Shown here piece after piece: positions 55,470 through 60,963 of a DNA stretch of 61,029 bases. Made by a program: the position numbers and the translations under genes. Source of the DNA: an uncultured Planctomycetaceae bacterium (lineage in GTDB: Bacteria; Planctomycetota; Phycisphaerae; SM23-33); NCBI GenBank assembly GCA_964625865.1, contig CAZVEV010000002.1:1-61029 (forward strand), written 5' to 3'. Each line of letters starts with the position of its first letter. Positions within the stretch are counted from its first letter, which is position 1. The notes under the pieces were generated by a model. That model made no database searches. It was given only the letters and a program-made list of their open reading frames with translations, and was not told the DNA's origin.

Positions 55470-55512
55470 GCCGCGCCGATACCTCATTCGTCGGACATTG
55501 CGTGTCAATCGC
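55470..55512 (-). promoter_or_regulatory. possible promoter of the PilNOP-like gene
   Basis: The minus strand reads TTGACA-N16-TGAGGT about 50-90 nt upstream of the ATG at 55422. Confidence 0.25.
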
Positions 55513-55534
55513 TTAACTGTATGCATCCCGTGAC

Positions 55535-55568
55535 GCGTGCCGTGGCTTGACGCGAAGCGGCAACCACG
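55535..55568 (+). repeat. family D repeat
   Basis: GCGTGCCGTGGCTTGACGCGAAGCGGCAACCACG. Confidence 0.7.
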
Positions 55569-55854
55569 TGGAGGCGCGATAGTGTGCGACCCTCTTGGGC
55601 CTGTTGCCCAAAGCCTTTCCTGGGCGACCATGGTATAACCCGGGCAATGGGATGAAGAGGCATTTGCTCAGCGTGACCGGGGCAGGTTGGACGCGGCGTC
55701 AGACGAGATGTGGCGGCAGTTGCAGGGAATTCTCAAGCCGGAAGACGGCTCCTGACGGGCGAGCCGTCGTACATGCCCTTCCCTCTCGTTCGGTAGCCAT
55801 GCCGATTCAACCCGAGAACACGCCCCCTACGGACCCGCAGTCGAGCCGGTCCAT

Positions 55855-55887
55855 TGAAAAAGCCCCACCGGGCGAACCGGTGGGGCT
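55855..55887 (-). terminator. rho-independent terminator of the PEP-CTERM gene 55915-56658
   Basis: The minus strand reads AGCCCCACCGG-TTCGC-CCGGTGGGGCT followed by TTTTTC, 28 nt after the stop. Confidence 0.75.
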
Positions 55888-55914
55888 TGGTGTGTCTGAA
55901 GATCGTGGATCGAG

Positions 55915-56658
55915 CTACCGCTTCCGCGTTCGTCGCAGCCCCAGCAGGCCAACGGCGGCCAGGGCGAGGGTGGTCGGTTCGGGAACCTCGGTGGCCAGCC
56001 GAACTTCGCCCAGACCGTAACGGTCGCCGCCACCAGTGATACCGGGTTGACCCAAGTAGTTGTTGTCAATGCGAACAGCGACATACTGAGCTGTTTGCGA
56101 CGAGCCGAAACTAAAGAACTGGGCATAGTTGGCAGAAGCAACATTACCGGGAATATCGTCCATCGTACCGGACAGGTCTGCCGTTTCTGTGCCAAAATCA
56201 AATGAGTTCCCTTCAGCGTTTGTGTGCAGGATTACGCGAAAATCACGGGTATGATTTCCATGATCGGTGGTGAGGGGTCCACCGTTGTTGCCATACTGCC
56301 ACAGGATAATCGATCCCACCGCAGTGTCCGCTCCAAGATCAAAGACAAACTCTGGATTTCCTGATCCCGTCCCGCGCGTCCATGACTCAGCGTGACCGTC
56401 GCCGCTTAGTTCGGCGACCGTGTTCATCGTGTTGGCCAAAGACTCACCGGTATTCAGGGCAACGCCAGTCCCGGCAGGCCGTTGAAGGCTGGCGGCGGCG
56501 AAACCGGCATTGTCATCCAACAAATACAAGTGGCTTGAGCCGGCATCGCCGGTGATGTCAGTGGTCACCGATGATGGTTTGATGATGGCAGCGGAAGCCA
56601 TGCCAACGTGGACGACTGCGATTGCAACGATTGCACAAATGATGGTTCGCTGTTTCAT
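55915..56658 (-). CDS. PEP-CTERM-anchored secreted protein (galactose-binding/discoidin-like domain?)
   Basis: Signal peptide MKQRTIICAIVAIAVVHVGMASA. C-terminal VPEPTTLALAAVGLLGLRRTRKR. Confidence 0.75.
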   Translation of the reverse strand: MKQRTIICAIVAIAVVHVGMASAAIIKPSSVTTDITGDAGSSHLYLLDDNAGFAAASLQRPAGTGVALNTGESLANTMNTVAELSGDGHAESWTRGTGSGNPEFVFDLGADTAVGSIILWQYGNNGGPLTTDHGNHTRDFRVILHTNAEGNSFDFGTETADLSGTMDDIPGNVASANYAQFFSFGSSQTAQYVAVRIDNNYLGQPGITGGGDRYGLGEVRLATEVPEPTTLALAAVGLLGLRRTRKR

Positions 56659-56912
56659 TTGATTTCCTCCTGACTGATAGGAGATCTGATTCCGCGTGAC
56701 GGTGCGTCGGTGGCCCCTTCGACCTTGCTCGCTTCGACAGGCTCAGGGTCTGACGACAGGGTAAACCGAGGGTGAGGCGTTTGGACAAAGGCCGAGCATT
56801 CGATGCTCGCGTAATCCTCTGTGCCCGTGGCTCTCAGCACGTGACCCATCCGTTTGGCTCGCCTCGCGAATCTGTTGACGCCCAGGGAACATCCCTGAGC
56901 CGACTCGAAGGT

Positions 56913-56941
56913 AACCTACCACACTAGCCCGGCCGGGTCAA
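56913..56941 (-). promoter_or_regulatory. sigma70-type promoter TTGACC-N17-TAGGTT
   Basis: On the minus strand, -35 is at 56941-56936 and -10 at 56918-56913. The architecture is conserved with 57893-57921. It implies a ~250-nt leader. Confidence 0.5.
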
Positions 56942-57018
56942 GGGCCAACCTGAAGAAAAACGACGCCGTTCGGTTCAGCCATTGGGTCGTTGTCTTGCCC
57001 GCAGTCGAGCCGGTCCAT

Positions 57019-57051
57019 TGAAAAAGCCCCACCGGGCGAACCGGCGGGGCT
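57019..57051 (-). terminator. rho-independent terminator of the PEP-CTERM gene 57079-57720
   Basis: Same hairpin as 55855-55887 with one A-C mismatch, followed by TTTTTC. Confidence 0.7.
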
Positions 57052-57078
57052 TGGTATGCGTGCTGATTCCGGATCGGA

Positions 57079-57720
57079 TTACCGTCTTCGCCTTCGCAGC
57101 AGCCCCAGCAGGCCGACCGCGGCCAGGGCGAGGGTGGCCGGTTCAGGCGTTGGCGTGCCGATCACATCGACCTCACGCCAGACGTTCCCGTTGCCTATCG
57201 TCGAGTGATCGAGACGAAGGGCATCGACTCCCGTTCCGATGAGCCCGCCGCCGTTATCGAACAGATGAGACTCTGCGAAGATGCCACTGACGACCCCAGT
57301 GCTCACCGGCCCGCCGGTGATGGTCACCGACGTCCATGACGGATCGCCCACGAAGCTGATTTCCAATGCGTACTGGTGTCCCGCCCGGTTATCGTTCCAT
57401 CCCGAATAGACGTCGATCTGCTGGATGTCGTACCCCAGCGTGTTCGTGCTGACATCGAGGAAGTACTCGAGCGCGTCCCCGCTGATAATCCCGCTATGCA
57501 CATTGGCCCCCCAGTTACCCTGGCTCACGTCACCGTCGACGTCCCAGTCGGTCGGGGCGTTGTCATTTCCGGCGCCTTTCGAGGCCAGAGACATCTGCAG
57601 CAGGTCCGTCGTCGACGCTGTCGGCTCGGTGGTGCTCGTTGAGGTGGTGTAAACGATCGCGGCCTGTGCGGTCGTGCCCACCAGGCCCAGTGCCAGTAGT
57701 GTGACAATCATGGTTCGCAT
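57079..57720 (-). CDS. PEP-CTERM-anchored secreted protein
   Basis: Trimmed to MRTMIVTLLALGLVGTTAQA. C-terminal TPEPATLALAAVGLLGLLRRRRR. Confidence 0.75.
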   Translation of the reverse strand: MRTMIVTLLALGLVGTTAQAAIVYTTSTSTTEPTASTTDLLQMSLASKGAGNDNAPTDWDVDGDVSQGNWGANVHSGIISGDALEYFLDVSTNTLGYDIQQIDVYSGWNDNRAGHQYALEISFVGDPSWTSVTITGGPVSTGVVSGIFAESHLFDNGGGLIGTGVDALRLDHSTIGNGNVWREVDVIGTPTPEPATLALAAVGLLGLLRRRRR

Positions 57721-57892
57721 CTTGAAACTCCTGCGGTGATGGAGAAGCCGCCAAAGCTCACCCATCTGCAACGATTCCTCGTAACCGTTCAGGCGAAGTG
57801 TCCGGCCGGTCTTTGTTCCTCACTCGGCTGCAAAAGGCATCCACTCTACCTCGCCAGGCTCTGTTGGTCCCGGTGACCAACTCTTATCAGAA

Positions 57893-57921
57893 ACCTTACC
57901 ACACGCCCCCGTCCAGGTCAA
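57893..57921 (-). promoter_or_regulatory. sigma70-type promoter TTGACC-N17-TAAGGT
   Basis: On the minus strand, -35 is at 57921-57916 and -10 at 57898-57893. Confidence 0.5.
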
Positions 57922-58029
57922 GAGCGTTTTCTTTGAAAGAGCACCTTCGTTCGGTTCGGTCACCGGCTTGACATCTTGTCCGCGTACTCCGCCGCCGCCG
58001 AGAAACGGTCCGCCGCTGCGGATGGTCGT

Positions 58030-58224
58030 ATGCCGTTCCGCATCTTCCCGTTCGCCAGTGGCGGAAGTACCTCGGATGCATCAGGAAGACCGGTCACCGA
58101 GCGTCAGAGAACCGGTCACCGCTTTGGGCGTCGAGACAAAGAAAAAGCCTCCAAGCTCTCGTTCTTGAAGGCCTTATCTCACTACGCCCGACAGGATTCG
58201 AACCTGCAACTTCTTGCTCCGGAG
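58030..58224. repeat. 195-bp perfect direct repeat, copy 1 (contains the displaced 3' half of tRNA-Arg)
   Basis: By eye it is identical base for base to 58871-59065 (offset 841). Confidence 0.85.
58183..58224 (-). pseudogene. partial tRNA-Arg(CCG): anticodon loop to 3' end only
   Basis: The minus strand reads CTCCGGAGCAAGAAGTTGCAGGTTCGAATCCTGTCGGGCGTA. Sequence 5' of the anticodon loop is unrelated to a tRNA. Confidence 0.8.
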
Positions 58225-58870
58225 AGAACCCAGCGGTCACTTTCATACCTGCAACTTGTGCTGATAACACCTTCTTTTCACGGATGTTATGAGAAGACAA
58301 GAGGCGAAAGCTGAGTGTCCAATTGTTGTACAGTTTGGAACCGTTTGGAACGAAAACCGGTCACCAAACCGGTCACCGATCAAGGGCTGTTTTTCTTCTT
58401 GGCGACCCATGTGAAGTACAATCTTCTCTTGCCCCGAGCCAACTGGCTGATGTAGGATTTCTGAGAACGCCCCACGACGGTTAGCGTTGAGAGAACTCCG
58501 ACGGTGCCTGTCCTCGACAGGTTCCGCAGGCGTTTTCACGGGTTTTCGGCAAATGGGTGCCGAGAGTATGACTCCGAGAAGAAGCATCAGCCCCAAACAT
58601 CAGAGAATCATCGATCTCCTGACCGCCGAGGATCTGACGGTCCGTCAGGCCGCTGAACGGCTCGGCATGTCAACCAGTTCAGTCTACTACGCCTGTAACA
58701 AGTACAAGCTCAAGTACCGTAATGCTCCCAGCAGGAATCGGATTCCGGAGTTGGTGGATCGAGAATGGTTGTATCAGAAGGTTGCGGTCGAGGGGCTGAA
58801 CTACAAGGAGATTGGGGATCTGATGGGTTGCTCTCGCCAGTACGTCCACCAGAAGGTCAACGAGTTCGGC
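58225..58870. mobile_element. 646-bp AT-richer insert between the att-like repeats (remnant or miniature integrative element)
   Basis: Bounded by the 195-bp repeats. Its composition is visibly less GC-rich than the surroundings. It carries an HTH ORF and AACCGGTCACC motifs. No integrase is present. Confidence 0.6.
58568..58870 (+). pseudogene. double helix-turn-helix ORF, apparently 3'-truncated
   Basis: MTPRRSISPKHQRIIDLLTAEDLTVRQAAERLGMSTSSVYYACNKY...LNYKEIGDLMGCSRQYVHQKVNEFG. The frame has no stop inside the insert and runs on through the repeat, antisense to the tRNA, until 59350. Confidence 0.4.
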
Positions 58871-59065
58871 ATGCCGTTCCGCATCTTCCCGTTCGCCAGT
58901 GGCGGAAGTACCTCGGATGCATCAGGAAGACCGGTCACCGAGCGTCAGAGAACCGGTCACCGCTTTGGGCGTCGAGACAAAGAAAAAGCCTCCAAGCTCT
59001 CGTTCTTGAAGGCCTTATCTCACTACGCCCGACAGGATTCGAACCTGCAACTTCTTGCTCCGGAG
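58871..59065. repeat. 195-bp perfect direct repeat, copy 2 (part of the intact tRNA-Arg plus 153 bp downstream flank)
   Basis: Identical to 58030-58224. Confidence 0.85.
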
Positions 59066-59096
59066 GCAAGCACTCTATCCATTGAGCTACGGGCGC
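59024..59096 (-). tRNA. tRNA-Arg (anticodon CCG)
   Basis: The minus strand reads GCGCCCGTAGCTCAATGGATAGAGTGCTTGCCTCCGGAGCAAGAAGTTGCAGGTTCGAATCCTGTCGGGCGTA. It folds as a cloverleaf with a 7-bp acceptor stem, GTTCGAATC T-loop and anticodon loop CTCCGGA. CCA is not encoded. Confidence 0.85.
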
Positions 59097-59100
59097 TTTC

Positions 59101-59133
59101 GATTGCGGAATTCGGATTGCGGATTGCGGATTT
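59101..59133. repeat. family G low-complexity repeat
   Basis: GATTGCGGAATTCGGATTGCGGATTGCGGATTT lies immediately 5' of the tRNA gene. Confidence 0.55.
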
Positions 59134-59252
59134 GCGCCGCGCGGGCAATCCATGTCCCACGGGAGGCATTGTCGCGGGCGAGAGAGGCAGTGTCAAGAGG
59201 AATCGGGACAGGGTGAATGTCGGGCGTTGCTTTCCTGTGCGCGCCAGGGCGG

Positions 59253-59339
59253 AGCCGCGGCGTATCGCCGCGGTGCCGTTTGTCCTACGTATGAATACCG
59301 TGCTCGAAGGCAACGGCACGGCGGCGATACGCCGCGGCT
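59253..59339. repeat. long hairpin (28-bp stem, 1 mismatch, ~31-nt loop), family J
   Basis: AGCCGCGGCGTATCGCCGCGGTGCCGTT (59253-59280) pairs with AACGGCACGGCGGCGATACGCCGCGGCT (59312-59339). Confidence 0.65.
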
Positions 59340-59360
59340 TCGCCCTGTGACGCGACGGAC

Positions 59361-59389
59361 GTTCGACCTTCGACCTTGGACTTTCGACC
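59361..59389. repeat. family F repeat
   Basis: GTTCGACCTTCGACCTTGGACTTTCGACC. Confidence 0.55.
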
Positions 59390-60911: not shown

Positions 60912-60933
60912 TGTCTCCCGACGTGCGTCGGGA

Positions 60934-60963
60934 GAGTCGAAGGTCAAAGGTCGAAGGTTCACA
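60934..60963. repeat. family F repeat
   Basis: GAGTCGAAGGTCAAAGGTCGAAGGTTCAC, preceded by a small hairpin CTCCCGAC-GTGC-GTCGGGAG right after the pgi stop. Confidence 0.55.

Follow-up and report, generated by a model that had tools for sequence, protein, structure and literature searches.

A site in the anticodon loop of tRNA genes is used by many tyrosine integrases. Integration of an island leaves a regenerated tRNA gene at one end and a displaced 3′ fragment of that gene at the other, and these mark the island ends; islands with an anticodon-centred attP form one class, denoted Islander class ‘A’ (PMC4383910). CIMEs are decayed ICEs or IMEs that have retained attL and attR (PMC5704250). We analyzed a 61,029-nt stretch of DNA from an uncultured planctomycete (the window) and find that its tRNA-Arg(CCG) gene is probably the site of an integrase-type insertion scar, a CIME-like remnant, with the position of the exchange as the one pointer to an integrase.

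The window contains a single tRNA gene, identified by ARAGORN as a 73-nt tRNA-Arg(CCG) on the minus strand (59024–59096; anticodon at nt 34–36, CCA not encoded), in agreement with an earlier sequence-only reading of this DNA. The same gene is present in the comparison contigs L048, L049, L084 and L085. A repeat search revealed one direct repeat, 195 nt at 100% identity (58030–58224 and 58871–59065, spacing 841 nt); it is placed as the sequence-only reading had placed it, starting from the anticodon loop, and its perfection is a property of this contig and not of the locus generally. The first repeated position, 59065, corresponds to tRNA nt 32, with which the anticodon loop begins, and the repeat is composed of tRNA nt 32–73 (42 nt) and 153 nt of downstream flank including the tRNA terminator hairpin. 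A 43-nt 3′ part of the tRNA has exactly 2 occurrences, versus 0 expected from shuffles. The right repeat copy, on the attL side, is joined to the tRNA 5′ half. The left copy, on the attR side, consists of a displaced tRNA 3′ fragment (nt 32–73; 58183–58224, minus strand) and native flank, and is joined leftward to native DNA that reaches to a PEP-CTERM gene (57772–58029) and is contiguous with the repeat in contigs with an empty site. Directly downstream of the tRNA lies a terminator-like hairpin with a T-run (58985–59016, minus strand; second copy 58144–58175). A pair of (A/G)ACCGGTCACC motifs is located on the plus strand of the left repeat (58088–58120) and again in the right repeat (58929–58961).

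Comparison with independent metagenome assemblies of the same strain revealed both empty and occupied sites in the natural population. In L084, a 24.9-kb contig, and in L085, the site is empty: the tRNA 5′ half is followed by one repeat copy and native flank, the tRNA is intact, and the contigs are 100% identical to the window on both sides. This single copy is identical to the left copy of the window, and we denote its native sequence as type A. The sequence-only reading had predicted an empty site joining 58029 to 59066; instead, the observed empty site keeps one repeat copy. Contigs L048 and L083 are occupied and match the window without gaps over 7.5–7.9 kb, apart from 16 mismatches. These are all located within the right repeat copy, spanning window positions 58929–59052, and L049 has the same 16. 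The two repeat copies in L048/L083 and L049 thus differ at 16/195 positions (91.8% identity), and the right copy, which is type A in the window, is a foreign type B in L048/L049. The type B repeat is 88–92% identical to native flank; its terminator-like hairpin keeps the stem and varies in the loop, and over the first 58 nt of the repeat types A and B show no difference (P = 0.003). The insert was found in one strain population only. Two outcomes had been set in advance against an insertion, a tandem duplication of native DNA and an insert conserved at this position without repeats; the related contigs show neither, and the insert is absent from those with an empty site. Synteny via the neighbouring PGI gene in GTDB genomes was uninformative, the relatives being ≤75% identical with no tRNA-Arg beside PGI.

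In the L048 arrangement, the copy joined to the tRNA 5′ half is entirely type B and the displaced copy is entirely type A, which places the exchange within 13 nt that are identical in the two types (59053–59065, minus strand; 58212–58224 in the left copy). These are tRNA nt 32–44, the anticodon loop and the 3′ strand of the anticodon stem, and are the only interval possible for the exchange behind this arrangement; had homologous recombination taken place in the 58 identical nt at the other end of the repeat, the opposite arrangement would have resulted. Nucleotides 25 and 45 of the tRNA covary, as T25/A45 or C25/G45, in 22/22 other tRNA-Arg(CCG) loci examined, which were collected by a metagenome scan with a degenerate tRNA-junction pattern and come from other lineages (0 from this species). 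The L048/L049 tRNA has T25/G45 and breaks this covariation, the empty-site tRNA is concordant, and the L048/L049 gene is a chimera. Differences in the T-stem at 50:64 are compensatory, the type B stem being AGAGG/CCTCT; a native type B gene would be expected to carry C25/G45. The 153 nt of flank in the repeat probably stem from beside the tRNA in a related lineage and were brought by the insert.

A second case was found at the same tRNA in an unrelated contig, L075, where a 44-nt repeat starting from the same nucleotide (nt 32) surrounds an 876-bp insert. This insert has 45–55% GC in a ~70% GC host and encodes SieB (Pfam E = 7.7e-27) and no integrase. The two loci are alike in the tRNA species, the start of the repeat at nt 32, a sub-kilobase insert without an integrase, and low GC. 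They differ in that the L075 repeat covers the tRNA part plus 2 nt only, its SieB cargo is clearly phage-derived, and its host belongs to another lineage; the two inserts have zero sequence similarity. The empty sites, the chimeric tRNA and the L075 case together support the earlier proposal of an att-type insertion with exchange in the anticodon loop, and its core reading, a remnant or non-autonomous element, holds.

The 646-bp insert (58225–58870) is AT-richer than its surroundings, as had been noted (52.6% GC vs 66.4% in the window). It contains short tandem motifs on the plus strand (58333–58377), with GTTTGGAAC present twice (58333–58351) and AAACCGGTCACC present twice (58354–58377). Its sole ORF family match is a double-HTH ORF (58553–59350, plus strand, 265 aa as called), which indeed has no stop ahead of the repeat and continues in frame to 59350. 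Homology to the ~116-aa HTH family is limited to 58553–58872 and ends, for DNA and protein alike, at 58872, the repeat boundary; in place of the ~20 aa that naturally end the protein, the frame reads on into the repeat and antisense through the tRNA. The L048 version of the ORF ends inside the type B repeat. The joint between the gene fragment and the tRNA-flank DNA (58871–58872) is illegitimate, with a 2-nt ‘AT’ microhomology. The family gene normally has thiF on one side and an HTH_3 gene on the other, close to tig-clpP, at a locus with neither a tRNA nor an integrase, and the fragment is 77–86% identical to family members at the DNA level. The ORF is a 3′-truncated paralogue of this conserved chromosomal Phycisphaerae family, illegitimately fused to the repeat. 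As it is cut exactly at the repeat boundary, the insert is best described as a rearranged hybrid and not an intact element.

A canonical member of the HTH family, P0005, scores 37.4 bits against TIGR01764 (NCBIfam ‘excisionase family DNA-binding’, cut-off 28.8), and the truncated copy of the window scores 21.8, under the cut-off. Two further readings of the ORF were rejected: that its repeat-encoded tail derives from the natural C-terminus by divergence (shuffled sequences align with equal scores), and that the gene is normally tRNA-adjacent (0 tRNAs in ten canonical loci).

The sequence-only reading described an element without its own integrase, and our searches bear this out. No integrase was found among the 30 of 41 long ORFs of the window that were scanned against Pfam, the matched ORFs belonging to housekeeping families, and a motif scan for integrases was negative. 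In the gene tables of the overlapping contigs L048 and L056, the genes left of the PEP-CTERM pair have no Pfam family assigned. A BLAST search of the insert against phage and plasmid collections yielded no DNA match and one generic HTH match, at 30% identity, in a Gordonia phage. In viral contigs, the tRNA 3′ half, the 58-nt repeat end and the terminator had 0 matches each, and the HTH family had two weak partial matches. The (A/G)ACCGGTCACC motif pair and the GTTTGGAAC pair each had a single match in viral contigs with no further similarity, which we judged to be chance. Viral contigs, phages, plasmids and the fetched loci yielded no parent element, and no excisionase was found either. Inspection of the ORFs beside tRNA-Arg(CCG) in the 22 metagenome loci revealed no obvious integrase.

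We propose that an 841-bp segment, composed of the 195-nt tRNA 3′ part with its flank and the 646-bp insert, would have entered the native gene via site-specific exchange in nt 32–44, regenerating the tRNA on the attL side and displacing the native 3′ fragment on the attR side. The incoming DNA would have been a hybrid without a recombinase, in which the truncated double-HTH paralogue and its upstream region were fused to a related lineage's tRNA 3′ half, terminator and 153-nt flank. One illegitimate joint would suffice to make this hybrid, and its structure would fit either an aberrant-excision product or the decay of a larger element. In the window contig, native sequence would then have replaced the foreign repeat copy, giving the perfect repeat. 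Both junctions and the nt 32–44 core are intact at the sequence level and may be regarded as putative attL and attR.

Two features sit uneasily with a simple version of this model. The repeat continues for 153 nt beyond the tRNA, as att identity blocks seldom do, and flank capture has to be assumed in addition; the 58-nt identity between types A and B shows further recombination that the model does not predict. Separately, the empty site may predate the insertion instead of resulting from excision, so that current mobility does not follow from it.

As in CIMEs, putative att-type junctions lie on both sides at a tRNA 3′ part, integration and transfer genes are lacking, and the locus is probably a product of decay or rearrangement. 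It differs from CIMEs in having 0.65 kb of unique DNA only, in a 195-nt repeat that results from 153 nt of captured tRNA flank, and in its host, which belongs to the Phycisphaerae (Planctomycetota) rather than being a Firmicute. No parent ICE or IME, cognate integrase or accretion partner was seen, and mobilisation is putative. The locus shares with Islander class ‘A’ islands an intact, regenerated tRNA and, on the same replicon and in direct orientation, a displaced fragment of that tRNA from the anticodon loop; the fragment boundary is at a recognised crossover subsite (repeat start at tRNA nt 32), GC is lower, and presence or absence is polymorphic with a precise empty site (L084, L085). 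It differs from these islands in lacking a tyrosine integrase gene inside the island, in being far below typical size, and in an identity block that extends well past the tRNA 3′ end. Williams in 2002 is reportedly also a source for anticodon-centred attP islands in tRNA genes. A further parallel is provided by the lambda dgal and dbio specialised transducing genomes, which are aberrant-excision hybrids of integrated elements. The locus resembles them in that an element end is illegitimately joined to neighbouring host DNA (the tRNA 3′ half and 153-nt flank in this case) with an att junction retained; neither packaging nor a parent element was seen here, and the analogy covers anatomy only. 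The locus is probably an ordinary mobile-element leftover of a known kind, and no general concept is changed by it.

The perfect 195-bp repeat had been taken to suggest a recent event or homogenisation. The dating does not stand, given the divergence of the copies in other assemblies; homogenisation stands as one of two options, the perfect identity in the window reflecting recent homogenisation or else a consensus artefact of assembly. We see an even chance that the identity is non-biological, the assembler or polisher having put the better-covered type A over the minority type B path in a sample that mixed empty and occupied sites, in which case perhaps no cell has the insert between two type A copies. 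Both parental haplotypes occur in sister samples with otherwise identical flanks, and over 7.5 kb the window differs from L048 at the 16 A/B positions only. The A and B paths are of equal length between shared ends, the type of bulge that, judging from the behaviour of de Bruijn assemblers, strain-collapsing assemblers would merge, and short-read contigs of other samples break exactly at the branch points, 58084/58087 and 58874. However, a single homologous exchange with an empty-site donor would give the same haplotype for real, if one crossover fell in the 58 nt shared by both types and the other within the tRNA 5′ half or beyond it. As a caution for assembly, a perfect long repeat in a metagenome contig may stem from strain mixing or recent recombination and is unfit for dating an insertion.

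We also considered an origin with no integrase at all, in which chromosomal DNA of related Phycisphaerae arrived by transformation or a similar route and was incorporated by homologous plus illegitimate recombination, with the tRNA and its flank as the anchor. The two parts of the insert that can be recognised are similar to chromosomal DNA of Phycisphaerae (type B at 88–92%, HTH at 77–86%), one joint is plainly illegitimate with its 2-nt microhomology, and no integrase was found. We nevertheless consider this origin unlikely: the other joint coincides to the nucleotide with the start of the anticodon loop, here and in the unrelated L075 alike, and the exchange seen in L048 is confined to 13 nt of identity, too short for RecA, despite the availability of a perfect 58 nt. 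In described cases of anchor-plus-illegitimate insertion, recipient DNA is replaced and is not known to be duplicated, as it is here over 195 nt, which counts against this origin as well.

It is quite improbable that the 841-bp unit is a live non-autonomous mini-element, inserted and excised repeatedly by an integrase encoded elsewhere, with an attP carrying putative arm-type AACCGGTCACC sites and a small excisionase-like double-HTH gene. Such an element would account for finding both empty and occupied sites among otherwise identical strains, with the scar-free empty site as the excision product; the AACCGGTCACC pairs are placed like arm-type sites, ~100–150 nt to each side of the exchange point, and P0005 is over the NCBIfam excisionase cut-off. 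Against this, the copy in the window is under that cut-off and is a truncated copy of a family at home in a conserved chromosomal locus, the native flank of the empty site has this motif pair too, the unit occurs as one copy in one strain population, and neither a circle junction nor an integrase was seen. The circle junction would read as the tRNA 3′ part ending ...CTTGCTCCGGAG, then AGAACCCAGCGG, with the HTH end behind it. If real, the mini-element would play the part of a MITE for tyrosine integrases, and no other described integrative element that targets tRNA genes is known to be nearly as small.

That native DNA was simply duplicated in tandem at this locus, which the direct repeats at a fixed 841-nt spacing might suggest, is extremely improbable, as the 195 nt alone are duplicated, the insert is single-copy, differs in GC, carries a xenologous gene fragment and is missing at the empty site, and the tRNA-side repeat copy is 8% diverged in other assemblies and makes a chimeric tRNA; a native whole unit repeated head to tail was likewise not found. 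An IS or transposon with a target-site duplication was also rejected: the insert ends have no inverted repeats, no transposase domain scored above threshold, and the 195-nt duplication begins at a tRNA structural boundary.

Read as an insertion scar, the locus offers a textbook case of a tRNA gene remodelled by integration in an uncultured planctomycete, with empty, occupied and homogenised haplotypes recoverable from public metagenomes. It indicates that the 3′ half of a tRNA, its terminator and its downstream flank can be replaced by their counterparts from a related lineage while the gene stays intact. The occurrence of two independent sub-kilobase remnants at nt 32 of tRNA-Arg(CCG) suggests that this position is an integration hot spot in the group, which can guide searches for integrative elements and phages of Phycisphaerae.

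The single tRNA predicted in the window, a tRNA-Arg(CCG) on the minus strand (59024-59096; anticodon, nt 34-36), overlaps the only long direct repeat recovered by the repeat search, two copies of 195 nt with 100% identity (58030-58224 and 58871-59065) at a spacing of 841 nt. Window position 59065 is tRNA nt 32, the first nucleotide of the anticodon loop, and each copy thus comprises tRNA nt 32-73 (42 nt) followed by 153 nt of downstream DNA, within which lies the tRNA terminator, a 12-pair hairpin with a T-run. The 43-nt 3′ part of the tRNA occurs exactly twice in the 61 kb, with no occurrence expected from shuffles. The 646 bp between the copies have a GC content of 52.6% (66.4% for the window) and contain an ORF with two HTH motifs that starts at 58553, is free of stop codons up to the repeat, continues antisense through the tRNA and ends at 59350. 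None of the ORFs in the insert encodes a recombinase or integrase. The sequence-only reading had described the repeat, the AT-richer insert, the open double-HTH frame and the missing integrase, and all of its factual statements were correct. We also observed 11 nt that reproduce tRNA nt 45-55 exactly (ACCTGCAACTT, plus strand) at 58247-58257, 22 nt into the insert, with a few more matching bases on each side (p about 0.03 against shuffles), which may be an older, degenerate att scar.

Exact-protein look-ups with the flanking PGI and PEP-CTERM genes retrieved contigs from several metagenomes, all of essentially the window's own strain, in which the locus exists in three states: occupied with diverged repeats, empty, and as in the window, with the insert and two identical copies. 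The comparison with related genomes that had been proposed earlier yielded an empty site, lacking the 646-bp insert, in contigs L084 (JGI 3300009314, 24.9 kb) and L085 (JGI 3300013117). Both run from the tRNA 5′ half through a single repeat copy into the native left flank, with an intact tRNA and 100% identity to the window on both sides. The 30-kb occupied contig L048/L083 (JGI 3300009431) matches 7.5-7.9 kb of the window without gaps, apart from 16 mismatches. All 16 fall in the right repeat copy, so that its two copies are 91.8% identical, and contig L049 (ENA ERZ23498668) carries the identical set of 16 differences. The sequence shared by the empty-site copy and the left copy is denoted as type A, and that of the right copy in L048 and L049 as type B.

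The 16 differences between type A and type B lie at 58929-59052. Five of them are within the tRNA (nt 45, 49, 50, 59 and 64), where the 50:64 change is compensatory (G:C versus C:G). All informative positions in L048 have the type B base in the copy joined to the tRNA 5′ half and the type A base in the displaced one, which places the exchange within the 13 nt common to both types, tRNA nt 32-44, comprising the anticodon loop and the 3′ strand of the anticodon stem. Crossing-over of the RecA type should favour the far end of the repeat, where 58 nt are perfectly identical, and would yield the opposite outcome, type A beside the tRNA 5′ half and type B displaced. The differences are unevenly distributed across the repeat (0/58 versus 16/137, P = 0.003), which shows that it has undergone some additional recombination or conversion.

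Positions 25 and 45 of the tRNA, which belong to the known 45-[10-25] base triple, covary perfectly in 22 other tRNA-Arg(CCG) loci (T25/A45 or C25/G45). The empty-site tRNA is T25/A45, and the L048/L049 tRNA (T25/G45) is the sole discordant one and is therefore chimeric, with a native 5′ half joined to a foreign 3′ half. Such a chimera is the expected product of integration at an anticodon-centred att site. An anticodon-centred attP class is listed by Islander, which maps the ends of tRNA-integrated islands by the regenerated tRNA and the displaced fragment (PMC4383910).

The PGI gene next to the tRNA places the contig in the Phycisphaerae (Planctomycetota). Its nearest relatives among the GTDB representatives reach only 75% identity and have no tRNA beside PGI. 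The HTH ORF is a member of a lineage-restricted protein family whose members are about 116 aa long (L038:7250-7600, L043:5118-5468 and L044:1969-2881, proteins P0002-P0004). In three diverged Phycisphaerae lineages the gene has one conserved chromosomal home, with thiF on one side and an HTH_3 gene on the other, beyond which come tig, clpP and clpP; these loci have no tRNA nearby. The family gene is at times, and recurrently, tandemly duplicated or fused (fused proteins of 218-229 aa), and the samples with contigs encoding the family protein P0005 also yielded contigs identical to the window. A further family member, P0004 (218 aa), is found at L081:1-8625 among small unknown genes, an HTH_3 repressor-like gene and an SNase-type nuclease, adjoining a kinase-WD40 gene. 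No tRNA or integrase was detected in this stretch, which comes from the same sample series and may be variable or mobile.

The DNA of the window copy is 77.5% identical to the family gene in L038 and 86% identical to that in L080. Its homology to the family stops at 58872 at both the protein and DNA levels, and the last ~20 family codons are therefore missing. The break (gagttcggcat/cctgcgc in canonical genes, gagttcggcat/gccgttc in the window) falls at the first nucleotides of the repeat with a microhomology of 2 nt, and the tail that the repeat adds to the ORF is not significantly similar to that of the family. The missing 3′ end and the position of the break indicate a 3′-truncated paralogue joined illegitimately to the repeat. 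In the type B haplotype (L048:5046-5549) a TAG within the antisense tRNA part of the repeat ends the ORF after about 168 aa; the equivalent window codon is CAG, and only in the window does the frame read on to 59350.

Type B resembles the native flank from end to end, with a conserved terminator stem and a different loop, and hence appears to be the 3′ half of the tRNA, together with its flank, from a related lineage. The homology between types A and B stops at the same nucleotide as that between the ORF and the HTH family. Most economically, one illegitimate joint would have fused a fragment of an HTH paralogue to tRNA-flank DNA, and we infer that the insert is an aberrant-excision hybrid or a heavily decayed element. 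No integrase match was found by Pfam among 30 scanned of the 41 long window ORFs picked, in which all matches were to housekeeping families, or by a heuristic scan of all six frames of the window for the integrase box-II motif. The genes left of the PEP-CTERM pair on the overlapping contigs L048/L056 have no Pfam family in their gene tables. We conclude that the locus is probably an integrase-type insertion scar, a CIME-like hybrid remnant that is polymorphic in the population.

The window differs from L048 solely in having type A instead of type B in the right copy, and two explanations for its perfect repeat are evenly balanced. In a sample with both haplotypes, assembly or polishing could have produced it, as the paths of the two types share their ends, have the same length and so form a bulge; with the lower-coverage path projected onto the other, resolution of the loop would leave the insert between two type A copies. 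In other samples, contigs assembled from short reads end at precisely these branch points. Equally, the right copy may really have been homogenised, for which one homologous replacement from empty-site donor DNA would suffice, given two crossovers, the first within the 58 nt of identity and the second either inside the tRNA 5′ half or past it. Conversion within the chromosome is a less probable route, as its tract would have to end within the 13 nt of identity. Under either of the two main explanations the perfection does not date the insertion. The interpretation in the sequence-only reading is supported in part: the remnant of an insertion at the anticodon loop stands, and perfection as a sign of recency does not.

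Also less likely is an origin in which the native flank is the fossil arm of an earlier element, because such scenarios need two independent breakpoints at one nucleotide. A near-match scan revealed a motif, (A/G)ACCGGTCACC, on the plus strand at 58088-58120, 58355-58377, 58929-58961 and also 57957-57964. Two copies lie in each repeat copy and two in the insert, on one strand throughout, and these repeat and insert copies are six of the eight near-matches in the whole window. The pair is absent from canonical HTH loci and could be an arm-type site or an operator. These motif pairs, the presence/absence polymorphism and the excisionase-type HTH domain of the family (a canonical member exceeds the cut-off of the NCBIfam 'excisionase family DNA-binding' domain) would fit a live mini-element mobilised in trans, but the element is single copy, its HTH gene is truncated and the motif pair is also present in the native, empty-site flank, making this improbable. 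Tandem duplication and an IS with target-site duplication were rejected for this locus.

Several further repeats were observed in the flanks. Immediately upstream of the tRNA (59100-59132) is a short tandem repeat of the GGATTGC type (cgattgcggaattcggattgcggattgcggattt), and similar stretches are present in three unrelated Phycisphaerae loci (L026, L037 and L043). Between the tRNA and PGI is a 36-nt inverted repeat with 94% complementarity and a 31-nt spacer (59245-59347), and five short-read contigs from other samples (L050-L054) start in or beside it (59266-59328), suggesting a dispersed repeat or strong hairpin that breaks assemblies. A TTCGACCT-rich motif occurs in inverted copies on either side of PGI (59359-59388 and 60932-60958); shortly past the second copy, at about 61029, is the end of the window and of several other contigs, consistent with a genome-wide repeat there. 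The end of one contig (L050:1752-1895) folds back, 144 nt matching window 61008-60865 in reverse, probably as a palindromic assembly artefact. Directly adjoining the tRNA flank, 55500-58029 has a lower GC content (about 50-62%) and contains two paralogous PEP-CTERM genes on the minus strand (55915-56658 and 57079-57720) with a common 148-bp segment of 86% identity (55834-55980 and 56998-57144). This stretch is present in empty-site and occupied contigs alike and may be an older island.

The locus shares with Islander-type genomic islands the regenerated tRNA and displaced fragment, the crossover subsite, the foreign composition and the empty site (PMC4383910). It differs in having no integrase, and in function and anatomy its likeness is to an integrase-less island at an anticodon-centred tRNA att site and to a CIME, a decayed ICE or IME that keeps attL and attR (PMC5704250); descent from an ICE/IME and mobilisability would be putative here. 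Unusual relative to known systems are how very small it is and that its repeat reaches 153 nt into captured flank DNA, both of them variations on a well-known theme. A second case was found in a different organism of ~70% GC (L075:2204-3198, metagenome contig Ga0272443_10016972), where a tRNA-Arg(CCG) has a 44-nt perfect direct repeat whose first nucleotide is likewise tRNA nt 32. The repeat encloses 876 bp of 45-55% GC with no integrase and a sole gene, sieB, encoding a SieB superinfection-exclusion protein (Pfam E = 7.7e-27). This independent mini-island supports a hot spot at tRNA-Arg(CCG).
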